A program made the translations under genes and the position numbers. Of a DNA stretch of 34,245 nt, positions 15,129 through 23,758 are shown in pieces. Position 1 is the stretch's first letter. Every line of letters starts with the position of its first letter. The stretch is taken from positions 1 through 34,245 of IMG/VR virus record IMGVR_UViG_3300049023_000137. The stretch is one strand, 5' to 3'. The stretch comes from a virus (taxonomy: Duplodnaviria; Caudoviricetes). The notes beneath the pieces are model-generated. The model searched no databases. It was not told the DNA's origin and saw only the letters and a program-made list of their open reading frames with translations.

Positions 15129-18100
15129 CTAGATCAGATCTGATTTCGAGCTCGACCACCCGGGGTCGGGAAGGCCGGAGATCTCCGAGCCTTTGCGCAC
15201 GCTGAGTCCGAGTCGCTTGATCTCTCGTTCGCTGCGAGAGACGACCTTACAGCGGCAGTTGCTGGCAACGATTCCGTCTGCTACGACCCATCCAGTCTCA
15301 GACTGGAAGTCGTGAACATGTCCCGAGTAATCGAATTCCCGAACCTCGATAACCTTGTCGAGCGATACACTTCCGGAACCTCGCTCAAGCAACTTTCCGA
15401 CGAGCTCGGCATCGCCCGACAGACCATCGGCAATGCACTGCGAAGTCGCGGCGTCACGTTGCGCAACCAATCCGAATCGGAGCGCAATAAGTGGGCTGCT
15501 CTCAAGAGCGACCGCTCCGCCATCGAGCGGCAATGCAGCGGCGCCTGGCGAGCGACCAGAGGGCGCGTCAGATCCGAGCGCGAGCGCGTCGCAGTCGCGC
15601 TCACAATGAGTCGACTCCGTGGCCTGTTCGAGGACGAACTCGCCGCGGAGCTCTCCGTTCGCGGACTTCCGGTCGTCGGTCAGCTTCCAGTAGCTACCTA
15701 CAACCTCGACCTCGCCTACGAACCGCTTCGCCTCGCCGTGGAAATCATTGCCAACACACCGAAGTCTTCCAGATGGGAGCATTTCCGAGAGCGCACGGAA
15801 TACCTCATCTGCTCTGGCTGGCTCGTGGTGTTCGTCCCGCTGCGCAGCCGTCCCCAGCGAAGCGATCCGGGAATCGGTCTGATAGCAGACAAGATCGTCT
15901 CCTACGCGGATCGACTGCGCAGCGGCGAACCCCTGGGGGGTCAGTATCGGGTGGTTGGCCGTCACGGAAAGTCGACGACCTTCATGCGTGACCAACTCGA
16001 TGGCCTTCCCGGCATACAGGGCACGTGATGCACCAACGATCGCGCCGCTGATGATCGTCTGCGGCAGGAAGCACTGGTGCCCCCACGGCGGCCGACCGAC
16101 CTTGCGCCAGAACGGATCGTCAGCACGCAGCACGTAGCCTCTGACCTTCGCGTGCGTTGCGCGACAACGATCGTCGCGTACCGCCATAATCTGCCAGTAC
16201 GGCCGCGCCGCTAGCACCGCTGGCTGTGTCATCTGCGCCTCGCGCCCGCTGCTGTATGCACCCATCGTCGCGTTGCGAAACACGGTCTCGACGTGCGATG
16301 GCTTGAGCTTCGTCCAGCCTGCGCTGACGAAACGTTCGCTGAGCGCCTTGCTGAAGTTCGCGAGGCTCTTGCCTTCGGTGATGCTCTTGCCGAGTTCGTC
16401 GAACGCGACCTGAAGCATCGACTTGCGAGCGAGTCCTGCGATGTTGAACGCAGCCTTTTTCGCGTTGCCAGCGAGCTTGTTCCACGTCGGTCGGTCAACG
16501 ATCTCGCGCGACAAGAACGCGTTGATCGCCTCCCAAAACGGACGCGTGGTGAACCCGCGCTGACCGCCGGCGAGATGCACCGAGAACTCAGCCGGCTGAA
16601 GCGGCTTGTCGTTCTCCGCTTCCCACTCCGCTTCGACCGCGCCGAACGCAGCGGAGTGAAGCATGCAGCGCTCGACCTCGACGGCGAGCGTCTTCACGTC
16701 GAGCGCCTTCGCCGCGGCGCGCAGTGCGGTGCGGATGTCCGTCGCGGTCTCGAGTCCGCGCGTGGAACGAGCGAGCGCGCGGGCCCAGCGCGTCGTGATG
16801 GCTGCGCCGCGCTTTGTGCGCGCGGTGGAGATGTCCTCCACGTCGCCGGCGACGTCGCCGGGCTGTGCGTCGAGGAGTAGCGGGTCGCCGTACGCGGTCG
16901 CAGCAGCCTGCGGCGCCGACGGAGCGACCTCGCGGATCCGAGCCTTCTCCACGCCGATCGTGCGGAGCATCCGATCGATCCCCTGCGCACCGACGACGAG
17001 CCACTGGATCTGCGCGACCACGCCCGCGACGTCCATGTCGCCGACGTGCCGCGCAGCCCATGCCTCGCGCAGGCGCACCGCCTCGTCCTCCGCGTCGGTC
17101 TCGACGACGCCGCGACGATCGACGATCGGCGCGAGCCGACGGAACTGGAGCTTCGACAGTGGTGTGCCTTTGCTCCAGATCTGCGGATACTCCTCGCGGA
17201 GTTGCCGCGCGACGCTGAGCGGGAACACGCGGTGCTTGCTGTTGATCAGCGAAACGCGCTTGTTCTCGCCAGCGAGCGGGAAGTTCGTGATGCCGCCGGC
17301 CGCTTCGGTCGCAGCGAGGTCGGTGAGCTCGGCGAACGTCGCACCGAGCGGCCCGTGAAACAGGTCGAAGTCTTCGTCGGGCGAGCCGGGCTCGAGCGTC
17401 GAAGCGGCGGCCGGCGCAGGCTGCGCGGTGCCGTTCGCGGGCGGAGGCTGCGCGCCGGGCTTGCCCCATTCGCCGATCCCGGGCTCGCTGCCGCTCGGGT
17501 CAATCAGCATCGGGCGCGGGGGGATGTACCGTGCGCTCATGTCGTCCTGCGGCGCCTCGACGAGCTGCACGATCGCTTCGCCCTTCTCGGGTTTGCGGTA
17601 TCCGGTGCGCTCGCGAAGTTCGTCGGCCGCGATCGGCATGCCGAGATCGCTAAACGCCTTCGCGCACTCGAGCTCGCGCTTTCGGTCGCGCTCGGGCGCG
17701 GTGCGCAGCGAGAATGTCGGCGCGTACCTGCGCGCGTCGAACGTCGAGATGCCGTAGAACGGCGCGTTCAGCGCGACGATCGACAGAACGAGATCGCGCT
17801 GGACGACGCCGCTGATGCGCTCGCCGTCGGCCTGGAGGATGAGCAGCTGCTCGTCCTGATGAACGCGCGCCTGCTGGCTGCCGAGGCCCGCGGACTGTGC
17901 GTCCGTCGTGCTGGTCCCTCCAAGGACCAGCTTCGAAATCTGCTTGTCGCAGTCGGCGATCGTGTGGTTGTGCAACTCGCCGGACTTCGGATCAGGCGAC
18001 TTGACCTCGAGCTTTACCCCCTTGGCGAACTGCGCGACGAGCGCGCCGCCGAGCGCTTCGGCTTGATCGACGGCTTCGTCGAGGTCGTCGGGCGTGGGGT

Positions 18101-18857
18101 TGCCCTCGAACGCCGGATCCCGCTCGATGATCTTCCACGGCTTCGCGTAGAGCTCGATCAGAATCATCCGATCGCGCGCGCTGTACCGCTTGAAGTTCGA
18201 CCAGTACAGGCAGCGCGGGTTCAGCCCGTCGCGCTCCGGGTACTCGTCGAACAGGCGCGGAACGAACCGAATGAACTTGCACGGGATGCGCGTGTCGAGG
18301 CCGTGCTCCTCGAACCCGCCGACGTAGCGCGCCGGGTCGATCACGCGGAGCTCGCGCTCCGGACCGAGCGTCAGGCGGCGCGGATGGATCCACGCAAGTT
18401 CAGCAACCTGGTACTGCGCGCGCCCGGTAAACCGGCGATCCCAGTGGATCTCGAGCGCTGCGCGTCCGTTCCAGTGCGCCCAGGCGAGATCCTGGATCGC
18501 TTGCCGGAACGACGGGATCTGCGTGATCTGCGAGCGCACGAGGTTCGCGAGCTCGAGCGCCTTGCCCTTGTCGATGCCGTCGACCTGCGACGGCGCGACA
18601 TCCCAGTCGACCTGGGACGGCGAGACGAAGCGCTTCTGAAGCACCGAGCCGAGGTGCGGATCGCAGAGGATCGTCTCCGCGCCCGCGTCGGTCAGATCCG
18701 TGAGATACCCGGTCGCCGCGTTCAGCAACGCGGTCTCGATGCGCGCCGGCGTGAGGCTGCGCCCGAAGTGCTGGCGCCATTCCTCGCTGCGTGGCACACG
18801 CTTCGACACGAAGGCCCTAGCGAGCGCCGCCGGGTCGATGGTCAGAGGTGCGTTCAC
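15129..18857 (-). CDS. Portal (Mu gp29/DUF935-like) fused to an unknown domain and to an intein-containing Mu gpF-like minor head protein
   Basis: Portal motifs DPHLGSVLQKR, ALEIHW, ELYAKP, CDKQISKLVLGGTSTT and VHQDE. gpF motifs AFNIAG, HVETVFRN, AYSSGR, RPYWQIMAVRDDRCRATH and PPWGHQ/CRC. One uninterrupted 1242-codon frame. Confidence 0.88.
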   Translation of the reverse strand: MNAPLTIDPAALARAFVSKRVPRSEEWRQHFGRSLTPARIETALLNAATGYLTDLTDAGAETILCDPHLGSVLQKRFVSPSQVDWDVAPSQVDGIDKGKALELANLVRSQITQIPSFRQAIQDLAWAHWNGRAALEIHWDRRFTGRAQYQVAELAWIHPRRLTLGPERELRVIDPARYVGGFEEHGLDTRIPCKFIRFVPRLFDEYPERDGLNPRCLYWSNFKRYSARDRMILIELYAKPWKIIERDPAFEGNPTPDDLDEAVDQAEALGGALVAQFAKGVKLEVKSPDPKSGELHNHTIADCDKQISKLVLGGTSTTDAQSAGLGSQQARVHQDEQLLILQADGERISGVVQRDLVLSIVALNAPFYGISTFDARRYAPTFSLRTAPERDRKRELECAKAFSDLGMPIAADELRERTGYRKPEKGEAIVQLVEAPQDDMSARYIPPRPMLIDPSGSEPGIGEWGKPGAQPPPANGTAQPAPAAASTLEPGSPDEDFDLFHGPLGATFAELTDLAATEAAGGITNFPLAGENKRVSLINSKHRVFPLSVARQLREEYPQIWSKGTPLSKLQFRRLAPIVDRRGVVETDAEDEAVRLREAWAARHVGDMDVAGVVAQIQWLVVGAQGIDRMLRTIGVEKARIREVAPSAPQAAATAYGDPLLLDAQPGDVAGDVEDISTARTKRGAAITTRWARALARSTRGLETATDIRTALRAAAKALDVKTLAVEVERCMLHSAAFGAVEAEWEAENDKPLQPAEFSVHLAGGQRGFTTRPFWEAINAFLSREIVDRPTWNKLAGNAKKAAFNIAGLARKSMLQVAFDELGKSITEGKSLANFSKALSERFVSAGWTKLKPSHVETVFRNATMGAYSSGREAQMTQPAVLAARPYWQIMAVRDDRCRATHAKVRGYVLRADDPFWRKVGRPPWGHQCFLPQTIISGAIVGASRALYAGKAIELVTHEGRRLSVTANHPILTPQGFAAAQSIRVGDDLVCYQTDSRIASLGTAAQRDEHHEPARADEVFRALSEMLPSGRLRCVGNDFHGEAKRFVGEVEVVGSYWKLTDDRKSANGELRGEFVLEQATESTHCERDCDALALGSDAPSGRSPGAAALPLDGGAVALESSPLIALRFGLVAQRDAATSQCIADGLSGDAELVGKLLERGSGSVSLDKVIEVREFDYSGHVHDFQSETGWVVADGIVASNCRCKVVSRSEREIKRLGLSVRKGSEISGLPDPGWSSSKSDLI
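15258..16073 (-). mobile_element. Intein (272 aa, residues 929-1200 of the portal-gpF fusion)
   Basis: Starts CFLPQT (block A); LSVTANHPILT (block B TxxH); HVHDFQS (block F); ends GIVASN followed by Cys+1. Removal restores the gpF motif PPWGHQ-CRC. Confidence 0.92.
15318..16028 (+). CDS. HTH plus Vsr/DUF559-like (PD-(D/E)xK) endonuclease encoded antisense within the intein
   Basis: HTH: LVERYTSGTSLKQLSDELGIARQTIGNALRSRGV. Nuclease-like: FEDELAAELSVRGLPVVGQLPVATYNLDLAYEPLRLAVEI...RERTEYLICSGWLVVFV. GGAAG SD-like sequence 8 nt before the ATG (alternative GTG at 15312). ORF lies wholly inside the intein. Confidence 0.8.
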   Translation: MSRVIEFPNLDNLVERYTSGTSLKQLSDELGIARQTIGNALRSRGVTLRNQSESERNKWAALKSDRSAIERQCSGAWRATRGRVRSERERVAVALTMSRLRGLFEDELAAELSVRGLPVVGQLPVATYNLDLAYEPLRLAVEIIANTPKSSRWEHFRERTEYLICSGWLVVFVPLRSRPQRSDPGIGLIADKIVSYADRLRSGEPLGGQYRVVGRHGKSTTFMRDQLDGLPGIQGT

Positions 18858-19447: not shown

Positions 19448-19864
19448 TCACGCAGCATCCGTCAACCGTGTTGGGTCCGCAGCCTCGGCGCAGTACTGAA
19501 ACGGTCGGTCGTGTCCGTCGATCCAGTCGTCGAGTGCGCAGTTGTAACACCATGGGTGTTTCTTGCCGAGACCGTAGATCGGCAGCGGGTCGACATGGAG
19601 ACGCGCAAGCGCCTTCACGCCGTTGATCGAGCGTTGCGTGAGCCGCCCGAGTTCTTTTAGACCGACGATGCGCGGCAGGTCGGCGTCGTCGATCTGTCGC
19701 GCCTTCCAGAGCTCCAGCGTCGAGCGTCGGATCCAGTACCGGTCGATCATCCAGCGCAGGCGCAGCGGGTCAAACGGCCGCTGAGCGAACGCGATCACGG
19801 TGCCGCGGTCCGCGACGCCGAGCGCCTTCGCGATGTCGCGCAGCGTGTAGATCGCGTCGATCAC
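19448..19864 (-). CDS. Tandem excisionase/MerR-like winged-HTH DNA-binding protein
   Basis: Two internal repeats: IYTLRDIAKALGV...DPLRL...YWIRRSTLELW and IVGLKELGRLTQRS...DPLPI...PWCYNCALDDW. GTGA overlap with the upstream gene. Confidence 0.7.
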   Translation of the reverse strand: MIDAIYTLRDIAKALGVADRGTVIAFAQRPFDPLRLRWMIDRYWIRRSTLELWKARQIDDADLPRIVGLKELGRLTQRSINGVKALARLHVDPLPIYGLGKKHPWCYNCALDDWIDGHDRPFQYCAEAADPTRLTDAA

Positions 19865-20883
19865 GAGCTCGCTCCGGCCGAGCGAAGCGCCTCCGACGCA
19901 CGAGGCGGGACGCGCGGCGCGGCGGGTGCGGGAGCGGGCGCGGCGACGGCGCGCCGCTCGCGAGGCGGGATCAGGCCGCGCTCGCGGAGCGCGTCGCGTA
20001 CCCGGTCACGCGCGCGCTGAATGCGCTGCTTCGCCTCGCGCTGCGAGCGCGGCAGGTCGGACAGGTCGAGCGGCCCGGGATCCACACCGAGCTTGTCGCG
20101 CTTGAACACCTGCGCGGCGTACTCCTCGCGCAGCCTGGCGAGCGCGTCCTGCACGCTCAGCGGCTCGACGGCGAGCGCGAGCCCGTGCTTTGTCCTGCGC
20201 GCCCGCGAGCGCACCGTGCCCTGGTCAACGAGCTCCAGCAGGCGCTGATCGACGTAGCTCACGCCCGCTGCGCCGACGGCGTACGCGAGGTCGATCCGGT
20301 CAACCAGCGCGTCCTCGCCGCGCGCCGCCCCCGTGCGGTTCGCGTCGGGTGAGCAGGCGATCCGACCGAGCTGCATGCCGCCGCGAAGCCTGTACTTCGG
20401 TCGCGCCTCATCGACGCGCATTCCACCGCCGAGCCCCAGGACAGGGCGTGGTGTGTTCATCTCGGCCGCGGCGTGGCGGTACCCAGCGAACGCCGTCTCG
20501 CGTCGGCGCCGCGAGCGCACGATCATGTCGGCCTGCCCCGAGCGCAGGCGCGCGATGTTCCAGATCCACCGCGAGAACTGCGCGAGGATCGCGAGCGTCA
20601 CGAGGCAGCGCGTCGCCTTGCCCGCAGCACCGAGCACGCGCACGCGGTACGCGTCGAGGCGCGAGATCTCGGCAAGCGTCCAGGTGCTGTCGGCGTCGAG
20701 CCGCGCGTCGTCGCGCTCGATCCAGCGGTCGAGCCGTCCGGCGCTCGGCGCGTCGACCATGTGCTCGTAGCTCGGATCTGGCTCGCGTCGGATGGTCACG
20801 CCGCGATCGCAGTCGCGACAGGTGAGATGATCGCCCGATGTATCCCAGTGCGTCGAAGTAGAACGACAGAACGGACATCGCAT
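19861..20883 (-). CDS. Zn-ribbon protein with C-terminal sigma-region-4-like helix, putative late transcription regulator
   Basis: ATG at 20883 after AGGAG; CPFC...CRDC; C-terminal DQRLLELV...SVQDAL...REAKQRIQRARDRVRDAL. Confidence 0.5.
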   Translation of the reverse strand: MRCPFCRSTSTHWDTSGDHLTCRDCDRGVTIRREPDPSYEHMVDAPSAGRLDRWIERDDARLDADSTWTLAEISRLDAYRVRVLGAAGKATRCLVTLAILAQFSRWIWNIARLRSGQADMIVRSRRRRETAFAGYRHAAAEMNTPRPVLGLGGGMRVDEARPKYRLRGGMQLGRIACSPDANRTGAARGEDALVDRIDLAYAVGAAGVSYVDQRLLELVDQGTVRSRARRTKHGLALAVEPLSVQDALARLREEYAAQVFKRDKLGVDPGPLDLSDLPRSQREAKQRIQRARDRVRDALRERGLIPPRERRAVAAPAPAPAAPRVPPRASEALRSAGASS

Positions 20884-20955
20884 AGAGAAAACGCTCCTCG
20901 ACGAGACCCGCTCGTCGGTGCACACTCCCGATGTCCTAGCTGTGGCGGCGCGGAC

Positions 20956-21000
20956 GGGAACCCCCTTCTCCGGTTGACGGCCCGGAGTTGGGGGTTTCTT
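20956..21000. terminator. Long hairpin between TerL and the regulator gene (terminator or regulatory stem)
   Basis: GGGAACCCCC-TT-CTCCGG-loop TTGACGGC-CCGGAG-TT-GGGGGTTTCTT. Confidence 0.5.
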
Positions 21001-21185
21001 ACGTCGTGTCGGCGGAGCGATCGACGCTTGCTTCGGTCTGAGACTCCAGGATGGTGCCTGCTGGCAGAGCGACGCGCGCGCCGCAGGGCAAGATGGCAAC
21101 GTGATCCACGTTGATCGTGATCGTCTCGTGCAGACACGCAGGAAGCTCGAGTCGAAGTTCTCCGATCATGCCGGGGTAAACCATA

Positions 21186-22823
21186 TCAGAACCCTCCTGT
21201 GTTGTTCATCTCGCGCTGACCGCGCACCTTGCTCTTCTTCTCGACTTTCACGCTCAGATCCACCTGCACGAGCGCGAGAATCGCCGCCTGCATCACGTCG
21301 CCGTGCCGCGCGCCGTGCTTCGGTACCACGATTCCGATCCGTCCGCCCGGCAGCACGCGGCTCCGTGTGTCCTCCAGCTGCTTCCGTAGCACCGGGTCGT
21401 CGGGTAGATCCGCAAGCCCTTCCTGCATCAGTCGACGCATCTCGGCGAACCGCTCGCCGATTTCGTCAGGTTGCTGGCTGACCGCATCGTACACGATGTC
21501 GAACGTGCGATCTTCTTCGCGCAGCTTTCCGAGCTCCTCATACGCTGTCTCTTTGCTGTGATGGTCACCCTGCATTCTGCGCACGCGGTACTCTTTGCAC
21601 TTCCGCGCGAAGTCGCGCACGACTTCTGACGGCTTCAGCGAGACGCCTTTGTCTGGGCGCTTCTCCTCGTGATACACGAGCTGCGCCTTGACGATCTGCT
21701 CTCCGTCGACGATGACACGCAGCGGTCGCGCGATGGCAAGCGCGCTGCTGTTTTTCGTGAACCCAAAGTCAACGCCTGCTGTGTGAGGCACACCGAGCTC
21801 AGCTGTCAGATACAACGCCCGCTTCGGGTCGAAGCTCTTCTCGATGGCGTCGAGCGGGAAGAACGCCTTGTTGCCGGCGGCAAGCGGCAGCGCGTCGAAC
21901 TCGCGCTGCGCCTTGTCCGGATCGTACCGGCGCACGCGATCGATGTCCGCCTGCGGATACGCAGGGTTCATGCTGCGCGTGTCGCTGTGGAACGCGAGCG
22001 CATCGCCCGGCTTCCCGTAGTACCGCATAAACAGGCGGTTGAACGCGTCGTCCTCGGACCACGGCGAGCTCACCACCCATGCCTGAGCGCCTGGCAATAG
22101 ACGGCCAAGGATGGCGTCGATGTTGTCGCCGAGGTTTACCGCGGCTTCGTCGTCGTCATGGAATGCGGCCTCGTCGAACAGGATCCCGGCGAGCCACGTG
22201 CCACGAAGGTTGCCGCCTCCCTTGTCCGCGGCGATCTTCATGATCTTGACGAGCGCACCGTCTGGCCGCTTGATCGTGATCGACTCTGCGGCGTCCGGGT
22301 TTCCGTGGATGTACTTCCGCAGGATCGGGCTGTTCTTCATCGTGCCGCGGATGTGCTCCAGCGGCGCAGCGCCGTGATGCAGTTTCGGCCCGACGATCAG
22401 CGCGCGTATCTCTTCTCCAGAGCGAACGCCGATCAGTCCGTCCGCCTGCGGCCGCTCCCCCTGCGTCGGATCCGGTGGCCGGCGGAACTGGCAAAACAGC
22501 GCGCCGTATAACAATGAGAGCGCTGCAATCAGTGACTTCGCCGCGCGCACACCGGTACGCAGGATGACGAGGCTCGGGCGGCCGGGCGGCAATCGCTCTG
22601 CGTTGAAGTGGAATCCCATCTGTTCCGACGACAGCAGACCAGGCTCGATCGGCTTGCCGTCCGCCGCGAGCAGCAGAGCGATCTGCGTGTCGGATGCCGG
22701 CAGATCCGCCATGTCGCCACGGCAGACCATCTCACGGAACGAGAGATCGCGCGGAAGCTCCCGGTTCTTCTCCGGGTCGCTCATCTCGAGGAAGGCTTCG
22801 GCGAACGGGTTACGACATGCCAT
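21186..22823 (-). CDS. terL: Terminase large subunit
   Basis: Variant Walker A LVILRTGVRAAKS, LRG, Walker B GILFDEAAF, VVSSPW coupling motif, RNase H-like AGVDFG and HGDVMQA. Likely start is the ATG at 22823 (TGATG overlap). Confidence 0.88.
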   Translation of the reverse strand: MACRNPFAEAFLEMSDPEKNRELPRDLSFREMVCRGDMADLPASDTQIALLLAADGKPIEPGLLSSEQMGFHFNAERLPPGRPSLVILRTGVRAAKSLIAALSLLYGALFCQFRRPPDPTQGERPQADGLIGVRSGEEIRALIVGPKLHHGAAPLEHIRGTMKNSPILRKYIHGNPDAAESITIKRPDGALVKIMKIAADKGGGNLRGTWLAGILFDEAAFHDDDEAAVNLGDNIDAILGRLLPGAQAWVVSSPWSEDDAFNRLFMRYYGKPGDALAFHSDTRSMNPAYPQADIDRVRRYDPDKAQREFDALPLAAGNKAFFPLDAIEKSFDPKRALYLTAELGVPHTAGVDFGFTKNSSALAIARPLRVIVDGEQIVKAQLVYHEEKRPDKGVSLKPSEVVRDFARKCKEYRVRRMQGDHHSKETAYEELGKLREEDRTFDIVYDAVSQQPDEIGERFAEMRRLMQEGLADLPDDPVLRKQLEDTRSRVLPGGRIGIVVPKHGARHGDVMQAAILALVQVDLSVKVEKKSKVRGQREMNNTGGF

Positions 22824-23758
22824 CAGGCAGCAACAAGCATAGCTCCGACGTGCTCTTCTACAAGCTGTCTCAGCGTGAGATAGGGGCTGGCGTGGTCGCG
22901 TGCATCGATCTTGAACCCAGCCGCGCGCTCGTGCCCGCCTCCGCCGTTCGCCTTCGCCAGCGCGAGCGCCGACACGCGACCGCACGAGCGACACGACACG
23001 ATCATCCGGCAGCGGCCTGCGTCGACGTGGTAGTGCCATCCGAGCACGAGGTCGATCTCGCTCTCCAGTCGCTCTGCGATGTCGCTCGTGTGCGTGCCCT
23101 CGAACGCGATCACGCGCACGCCGTTCACCTCGAACCGGTACGCCTCCGCGATCGTGCGCTCGTCGCGATGCTCATCGCGCGCGAGTAACGTCTCGCCGAT
23201 CTCCAGGCGAGACGCGAGCGTATCGATCGGTGCGCCGACGAGCATCTCCGACGGCCAGAAGCGGAGCGCAGCGGCCTGCGCACATGCCTCACGCCAGCGC
23301 GGATCGCTGCGCTGCCAGGTGTCGCGGATGCCGGCGAGCGTCGCCGTATGCCCCAGTAGATCCGATCGCTGCGTATACCTGTACCCGTGCAGCAACCTCA
23401 TCCACACCTCGCGGAACGCCAGCGTCGCACCGCTCACACCCGGCTCCGTCACCTCATCCGCGAACACACCGCGCTCGCCGAACGCAGCGACGATCTCCAG
23501 AGCGCCCTTGTGATGATCGAGCACGATCGCGCCCGCGTCGACAAACTCCTGCACGCGCGCGGCCGGCGGCGTCATGTCGCAGAACAACATGCCGGGCTCC
23601 GCGCGCAGGTCGCGATGCGCCGGCGTGTTGTACTGCACGAACTCGATGCGTGCCTGCGGCAGCGCATCGTGCAGGATGATGGCGGACGCGACGCCATCGG
23701 CGCAGCCTTCGTGCGTGATGATGCGGCGGACGGCTAGGAGCGAGTCGACGTCAAACAT
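22823..23758 (-). CDS. DHH/DHHA1-family phosphoesterase
   Basis: ITHEGCADG, FCD, IVLDHH, SGA, RDTW, SCRS and GGGGHERAAGF motifs. Confidence 0.9.
   Translation of the reverse strand: MFDVDSLLAVRRIITHEGCADGVASAIILHDALPQARIEFVQYNTPAHRDLRAEPGMLFCDMTPPAARVQEFVDAGAIVLDHHKGALEIVAAFGERGVFADEVTEPGVSGATLAFREVWMRLLHGYRYTQRSDLLGHTATLAGIRDTWQRSDPRWREACAQAAALRFWPSEMLVGAPIDTLASRLEIGETLLARDEHRDERTIAEAYRFEVNGVRVIAFEGTHTSDIAERLESEIDLVLGWHYHVDAGRCRMIVSCRSCGRVSALALAKANGGGGHERAAGFKIDARDHASPYLTLRQLVEEHVGAMLVAA

Follow-up and report, generated by a model that had tools for sequence, protein, structure and literature searches.

Can one stretch of phage DNA encode a splicing intein on one strand and, on the other, the nuclease that moves it? 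The window, by which we mean the whole 34,245-base contig analyzed here, belongs to a Mu-like myovirus with family matches for terminase, portal, protease, capsid, sheath, and tape measure genes, and in its gpF gene an intein lies opposite a long open reading frame (ORF). We find that this layout is real and widespread, that it is a dual-coding intein of a kind known from a 2025 preprint, and that the intein is likely spread by its antisense nuclease.

The host gene and its intein

The elements of the minus strand are as follows.

15129..18857, minus strand: host gene, a portal-gpF (MuF) fusion (Portal_Mu, E 6.9e-52; Phage_Mu_F, E 9.1e-10; PHROG 113 and 220)
15258..16073, minus strand: class-1 intein, 272 aa, between H-x-[N/Q] and C-x-C of the MuF motif (motifs; high-confidence Hint-type core)
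16071..16073, minus strand: intein Cys1, invariant in alignments A2 and A5
15951..15962, minus strand: block B, T38-x-x-H41; its plus strand is part of antisense Y-R-V-V-G-R
15258..15320, minus strand: blocks F/G, H252-V-H-D255-F ... S271-N272, with Ser in place of the penultimate His
15255..15257, minus strand: +1 Cys of the C-extein (CRC motif)

The host ORF encodes 1242 aa including the intein, with 970 aa predicted after splicing. Portal_Mu covers residues 61-419 and Phage_Mu_F residues 820-929 of the 1242-aa product and, because both domains lie in one ORF, we describe the host as a portal-gpF fusion. The ∼400 residues separating the portal from gpF match no Pfam family, and the intein sits 42 residues short of the C-terminus. 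Elsewhere on the minus strand, 22823-23758, which encodes a DHH-family phosphoesterase (PHROG 4771), lies directly upstream of the gene for the large terminase subunit and overlaps it; 19861-21099 is a 412-aa ORF between terminase and portal with a weak zinc-ribbon match, for which no family was found; and the ORF at 31851-32504 matches part of PHROG 1926 ("released from the phage upon host infection", E 8e-8).

The intein occupies host residues 929-1200 and reads CFLPQT...TANHP...HVHDFQ...ASN between the flanks PPWGHQ and CRC. Its motifs, taken with the Phage_Mu_F match, bear out an earlier note on this DNA, which had placed a 272-aa intein between these two halves of the gpF motif and whose coordinates are all correct. 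As sequence motifs, C1, T38-H41, D255, N272, and the +1 Cys are those of a class 1 intein. The Hint fold is predicted from a model with a confident beta core, and the fold matches listed for it are inteins and hedgehog Hint domains only (best 2IMZ, E 1e-3). The penultimate residue is Ser271, a position at which relatives carry Ser in 36/84 cases and His in 36/84; a penultimate His is common in class 1 inteins but not obligatory. What we take to be the usual block F His is absent from the window intein. Profile searches of the intein frame against the LAGLIDADG and HNH families gave no match, in keeping with the earlier claim that the frame holds neither, and nearly all of residues 128-232 are modeled with pLDDT <50; the model is confident except at 68-83 and 128-232. 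The remark that intein codons, unlike those of the host gene, often end in A/T also holds, third-position GC being 0.66 for the intein frame and 0.86 for the N-extein.

The antisense ORF and selection in the two frames

On the plus strand an ORF starts and stops inside the intein, as had been proposed.

15318..16028, plus strand: antisense gene, 236 aa, with a helix-turn-helix (HTH), a helical linker, and a Vsr/DUF559-type nuclease domain

It is codon-aligned with intein residues 252 to 16, such that antisense residue n lies opposite intein residue 253-n. The proposal needed one refinement: the overlap reaches beyond the middle of the intein, spans its residues 17-252, and takes in block B. 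The aligned antisense frame likewise lacks stops in 4 of 10 further host genes or parts of genes in the window, so that an open frame alone is little evidence; the caution that such a frame may be open by chance was therefore valid, but it is overruled by conservation and selection.

When used as a tblastn query, the intein matched 111 phage records and the antisense protein 37. All 17 of the GenBank phage loci that were fetched have the antisense ORF opposite a head gene and unannotated, with the consequence that such inteins are taken for mini-inteins or for decayed copies. Among the 17 are four loci that only the intein search had found, and the ORF is present in 4/4 of them. In Gordonia and Mycobacterium phage MuF inteins, the antisense ORFs are homologous to the window protein at 25-33% identity (tblastn). 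A DNA pattern for the nuclease motif retrieved at least 120 IMG/VR loci, a set biased toward intact copies since the pattern picks motif carriers; an intein profile, which includes the mirrored middle, matched the other strand in all 120 listed. Long flanks were available for 80 loci and nine were dropped (cut off or uncalled ends); complete inteins numbered 89 with that of the window, 84 of them unique. In 84/84 unique inteins, which span 39-72% GC, at least 80% of the length is open in the aligned antisense frame, and the other four frames are open to this extent in 3, 1, 0, and 1 of the 84. There is no internal stop in 83/84 antisense ORFs, and 83/84 stop inside the intein. The exception of L096:657-1484, with an internal stop 24 codons past the start, is a candidate decayed nuclease. 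Intein length (259-391 aa) appears to track how many HTH repeats the antisense protein has (L010, L012, L013, L036, and L081, among others).

In an unbiased HMMER scan, 1772 protein clusters matched, 764 of them at E <= 1e-10, and the antisense-Vsr intein family thus amounts to many testable dual-frame overlaps; in prokaryotes and phages, it is rare for a long natural overlap to be fully antisense and under selection in both frames. Among the best 150 of the 1772 clusters, 148 homologs have Val/Met opposite the block B His codon, which suggests that these too sit in inteins. A word-indexed protein search with the antisense protein gave 0/2821 candidates, a miss of sensitivity given what the full HMMER scan found. 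The related-locus search with the intein protein alone or the antisense protein alone found none, and two wide alignments were too variable and were left out of the analysis.

A C-x-C C-extein lies beside 61/84 inteins, and intein-free MuF relatives (36-37% identity) read N-G-F-N-C-R-C at the site in 3/4 loci. Some of the remaining antisense-Vsr inteins appear to sit in genes other than MuF. Nine inteins of this type (L018, L019, L024, L050, L051, L066, L069, L089, and L097) have flanks unlike MuF; to the eye, some of their exteins resemble terminase or DNA-glycosylase types, and three have Thr at +1. Another five loci (L038, L044, L058, L072, and L080) are without Cys at the expected intein position 1 (Ala or Ser, for instance) and so may be class 2 or 3 or inactive inteins; these were left out of the intein counts.

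Read in the antisense frame, the central 174 codons have a dN/dS of 0.30 against the nearest relative (L035, 81% identical); read in the intein frame, the value is 0.82 (Nei-Gojobori, without transition correction). Changes silent in one frame only were also pooled over 12 disjoint close pairs and are given as antisense : intein; the pairs are kin, so that p-values are only indicative.

15378..15692, unstranded: mainly antisense-constrained segment, intein 128-232 (modeled disordered) / antisense 21-125, 294:66 silent changes
15693..15824, unstranded: both-frame segment, nuclease core YNLD...AVE...R facing intein 84-127 (helix and strands in the model), 47:36
15873..16025, unstranded: both-frame segment, C-terminal part of the nuclease facing intein blocks A/B (17-67), 54:74

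The two ends of the intein gave 2:44 (residues 1-15) and 4:55 (residues 253-272), residues 68-83 gave 24:10, and residues 233-252 gave 62:68 in a bin that includes the extra HTH repeats of longer members. By these counts, selection acts for the intein at its ends, for the nuclease gene in the loop, and for both products in three segments, in agreement with where the intein model is confident. In the segment at 15693..15824, amino-acid identity over the 12 pairs is 85% and 83% in the two frames. A single pair, L028/L091, shows no frame bias. Purifying selection is thus specific to each frame, and the dual coding and plus-frame constraint that the earlier note had suggested are borne out by the openness of the frame across related inteins, the two dN/dS values, and the excess of antisense-silent changes in the loop. 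The antisense gene is almost certainly real and selected.

The predicted nuclease, its probable mobility, and rival explanations

The antisense protein contains two predicted domains.

15345..15446, plus strand: predicted HTH, residues 10-43 (HTH_7, E 0.009; Hin recombinase domain, Z 6.4)
15615..16019, plus strand: predicted Vsr-type nuclease fold, residues 100-234, with E105, Q122, N129, D131, E142, and R159

Its AlphaFold model, made with 127 sequences, has a pLDDT of 95.4 and supports the N-terminal HTH and Vsr/DUF559-like domain that had been recognized by eye. The HTH superimposes on the DNA-binding domain of Hin recombinase with an rmsd of 2.5 over 45 aligned residues, and structural realignment of the nuclease domain gives 1CW0 (Vsr; Z 10.7, rmsd 2.5, 114 aligned), 3HRL (DUF559; Z 10.1), and 3R3P (I-Bth0305I; Z 9.8). 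Foldseek with the model returned nothing at E <= 0.001, its best being 3R3P at E 0.064, phmmer with the single antisense protein had 0 matches among PDB sequences, and the Pfam MTES_1575 match is below cut-off. The nuclease-domain profile matches 3R3P at E 1e-7, and the nearest ESM Atlas clusters are DUF559 (0.93).

Among 150 homologs (best of the 1772 clusters, 50% identity clusters), E105 is kept in 146, Q122 in 144, N129 in 143, D131 in 150, E142 in 149, and R159 in 142, and all family-invariant residues are present in the window copy. The reading EIIAN where ExDG..H is usual had raised the concern that the nuclease is divergent or inactive. The motif is indeed absent, but His/Asn at E+2 occurs in 27/84 inteins and 6/142 scorable close homologs, which makes its absence a trait of the family; inactivation of the window copy was rejected on this ground. 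In the alignment to I-Bth0305I (PMC3239194, as its text describes the enzyme), E105 corresponds to E170, D131 to D196, and E142 to the acid at the Vsr Phe62 position, and N208, H213, and D222 fall on I144, about P148/K149, and F156. As far as alignment can tell, the E105/D131/E142 acids are kept and the His and second Asp of EDxHD are missing; the latter equivalents are non-catalytic residues, so no general base is apparent. The predicted activity is likely that of a protein resembling a Vsr-type homing nuclease in its workings.

A real antisense gene might instead encode a DNA binder of regulatory or site-protecting function whose Vsr fold is catalytically dead, in an intein inherited vertically. 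The absence of the EDxHD His and second Asp would suit such a protein, as would the related folds found in mitoribosomal proteins (Z 8.1-8.4), but a dead enzyme would not need the three acidic positions that are nearly invariant over 150 clusters. Vertical inheritance would account for the equal divergence of window and L035 (intein 81%, exteins 77-82% identical), which gives no sign of recent transfer; against it, the patchy distribution in Gordonia phages fits homing, and we consider the dead-fold explanation unlikely. Gordonia cluster-mates differ in what occupies the MuF site that the intein uses in the window: in Geodirt it is empty, and others carry a Vsr-type intein of 275 or 316 aa or an antisense-LAGLIDADG intein of 275 aa. 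Many among the 60 Gordonia records listed span 976 bases for a 1801-base query, which marks an empty site. In the pairs measured, extein identity is 92-97%, compared with 61-63% between the two Vsr-type inteins. For several other pairs, the inteins resemble each other more closely than the exteins do (L014/L015, 86% vs 71%; L037/L041, 84% vs 62%), although double coding slows divergence and this is no proof of transfer. A search of viral contigs for the empty site of the window's own gene gave 0, and the contigs of four runs held no joint skipping the intein, which is no evidence of absence because contigs drop rare variants.

On the antisense strand, ATG or GTG can face only a His codon in the aligned frame. 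The expression signals of the window copy overlie the end of the intein.

15305..15309, plus strand: weak SD-like GGAAG, 8 nt from the downstream ATG, lying over intein codons D255-F256-Q257
15279..15287, plus strand: weak extended -10-like TGCTACGAC in the intein V263-V264-A265 codons, enriched in the family

His occurs at intein position -21 in 64/84 inteins, and 15 of the other 20 have an ATG/GTG 1-6 codons further in; since the His travels with the start codon, it probably exists for it. This His is encoded by CAT in 47/64, vs 68/266 extein His codons, and CTC, which reads GAG on the opposite strand, encodes the V-Y-N-L Leu in 45/59 vs 344/1068. A -10-like score of at least 5 is reached by 50/64, where three synonymous-recoding nulls predict 4.8, 9.3, and 15.8 (with maxima of 11, 16, and 25), and an SD match of at least 5 by 34/64 (expected 16.0, 12.0, and 5.8 under three such nulls); 39/50 representatives (<65% identity) pass the scoring. 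On sequence scoring, the last 20 intein codons of the family are enriched for -10 and SD signals, which are weak in the window copy. There, the -10-like score is reached by 11-45% of recodings and is not significant, and the SD-like GGAAG reported previously is present but weak, the family consensus being GGAGGT. A consensus promoter scan placed its single match downstream of the antisense ORF, at 16161-16190 (plus strand), and none upstream, and the hairpin of the 5′ leader is not unusual (z -1.68). Sequencing reads gave no demonstration of expression: one contig from a soil RNA run covers 15217-15438 (222 nt, 8 differences), but it gives no strand and was not used as evidence of expression.

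The weak SD and -10 would also fit a family that homes and a window copy that is decaying, its nuclease expression lost, as would the internal stop in L096 and the 29/44 residues of intein 84-127 that window and L035 keep in either frame, below the pooled 85%. With an intact ORF, a dN/dS of 0.30 over the central 174 codons, and every family-invariant residue in place, decay is quite improbable. Least probable by far is an ORF that merely mirrors a GC-rich gene by chance and has no product, which the stop-free frames in 4/10 host genes or gene parts would allow but which is refuted by dN/dS (0.30 vs 0.82), the 84/84 openness (also in 12 inteins <50% GC), and the pooled silent changes (294 vs 66 in the loop). 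Val/Ile codons fixed under Y-N-x-D in 18/18 sequences found without that pattern and the confident known fold also speak against it.

The explanation that we favor, and hold to be probable, is a two-strand selfish element that pairs a minus-strand intein predicted to splice with a plus-strand HTH/Vsr-type protein likely to cut intein-free gpF alleles. That the homing nuclease is active in the window's lineage seems to us a reasonably good prospect as well. Class-1 splicing (Cys1 thioester, transfer to the +1 Cys, Asn cyclisation) would restore PPWGHQ-CRC. A sigma-70-like -10 in the last intein codons would drive transcription, with translation from the ATG that mirrors intein His252. The HTH may guide recognition of the empty site, where an E105/D131/E142 metal center would nick or break the DNA, and gene conversion in mixed infection or with a prophage would follow as repair copies the element in. 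Such a layout would uncouple the timing of nuclease expression from splicing and late genes.

We tentatively offer a more ambitious joint reading, about which, taken whole, we have slightly more doubt than belief. It sees the locus as a deeply overprinted, inseparable enzyme pair and not as a mini-intein with a nuclease in its loop: block B and part of the folded intein core would share codons with the active-site strands of the nuclease, the last 21 codons of the intein would be its promoter, ribosome site, and start codon, the nuclease would cut DNA without the EDxHD His, and the design would occur in hundreds of phage lineages, having moved into terminases and other genes.

Comparison with known systems

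Gosselin, Arsenault, and Gogarten (bioRxiv 10.1101/2025.01.02.630785) describe, in the main text of their preprint, anti-sense VSR-like HEN inteins in actinobacteriophages, and minor-capsid (IPR006528) inteins all with non-canonical HENs. The architecture, of which the earlier note knew no description, is thus already described. Dual coding, a separate antisense HTH and Vsr/DUF559-like gene, and plus-frame constraint are supported from its interpretation, with splicing, homing, and uncoupled expression timing as proposals. As in the inteins of that main text, the window has a full, contiguous intein whose middle is unstructured in frame and without an in-frame nuclease fold, and a Vsr-like nuclease core on the anti-sense strand; the fold matches are 1CW0 (Z 10.6) and 3R3P in the preprint and 1CW0 (Z 10.7) and 3R3P here. 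Unlike those actinophages, the window is a non-actinobacterial-looking Mu-like phage with a portal-gpF fusion. The words "start codon", "ribosom", and "synonymous" are absent from the preprint's main text, and its supplement may cover selection or these subjects. Among the papers listed in our literature search on intein, antisense, and minor capsid or MuF, this preprint was the only relevant one.

With I-Bth0305I and the EDxHD enzymes, as portrayed in PMC3239194 and PMC2677866, the antisense protein shares an N-terminal HTH-type DNA-binding part and a C-terminal Vsr-type domain. Those enzymes occur in group I introns or between split-intein halves according to the same sources, unlike the window nuclease, which lies on the antisense strand of a contiguous intein. 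The profile alignment to 3R3P finds equivalents of Glu170 and Asp196 but variable residues at His213 and Asp222, and a single HTH stands where EDxHD enzymes have HTH/NUMOD parts; membership in EDxHD was rejected for want of the His and Asp.

The Gordonia phages Sitar (L142:616-1440) and SchottB (L144:616-1440) have a 275-aa intein at the MuF site with an antisense LAGLIDADG-like ORF, a kind also described in the main text of bioRxiv 10.1101/2025.01.02.630785. Insertion site and codon-aligned antisense frame are as in the window, but the nuclease is unrelated, with no match to the Vsr-type profile. A cyanobacterial dnaX intein with an out-of-frame LAGLIDADG HEN, argued from frame-dependent dN/dS and SD motifs (bioRxiv 10.64898/2026.09.14.751524), likewise has its nuclease in an overlapping frame, but the nuclease differs and the ORF is called +2, with antisense unmentioned in the text available to us. 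The out-of-frame HNH of ShiLan (PMC11855218, in the account given there) also overlaps, with a different nuclease and no splicing domain.

Since the architecture is already in the preprint, the window locus adds a member and some anatomy rather than a new kind: the overlap extends across block B, and both frames constrain the nuclease core.
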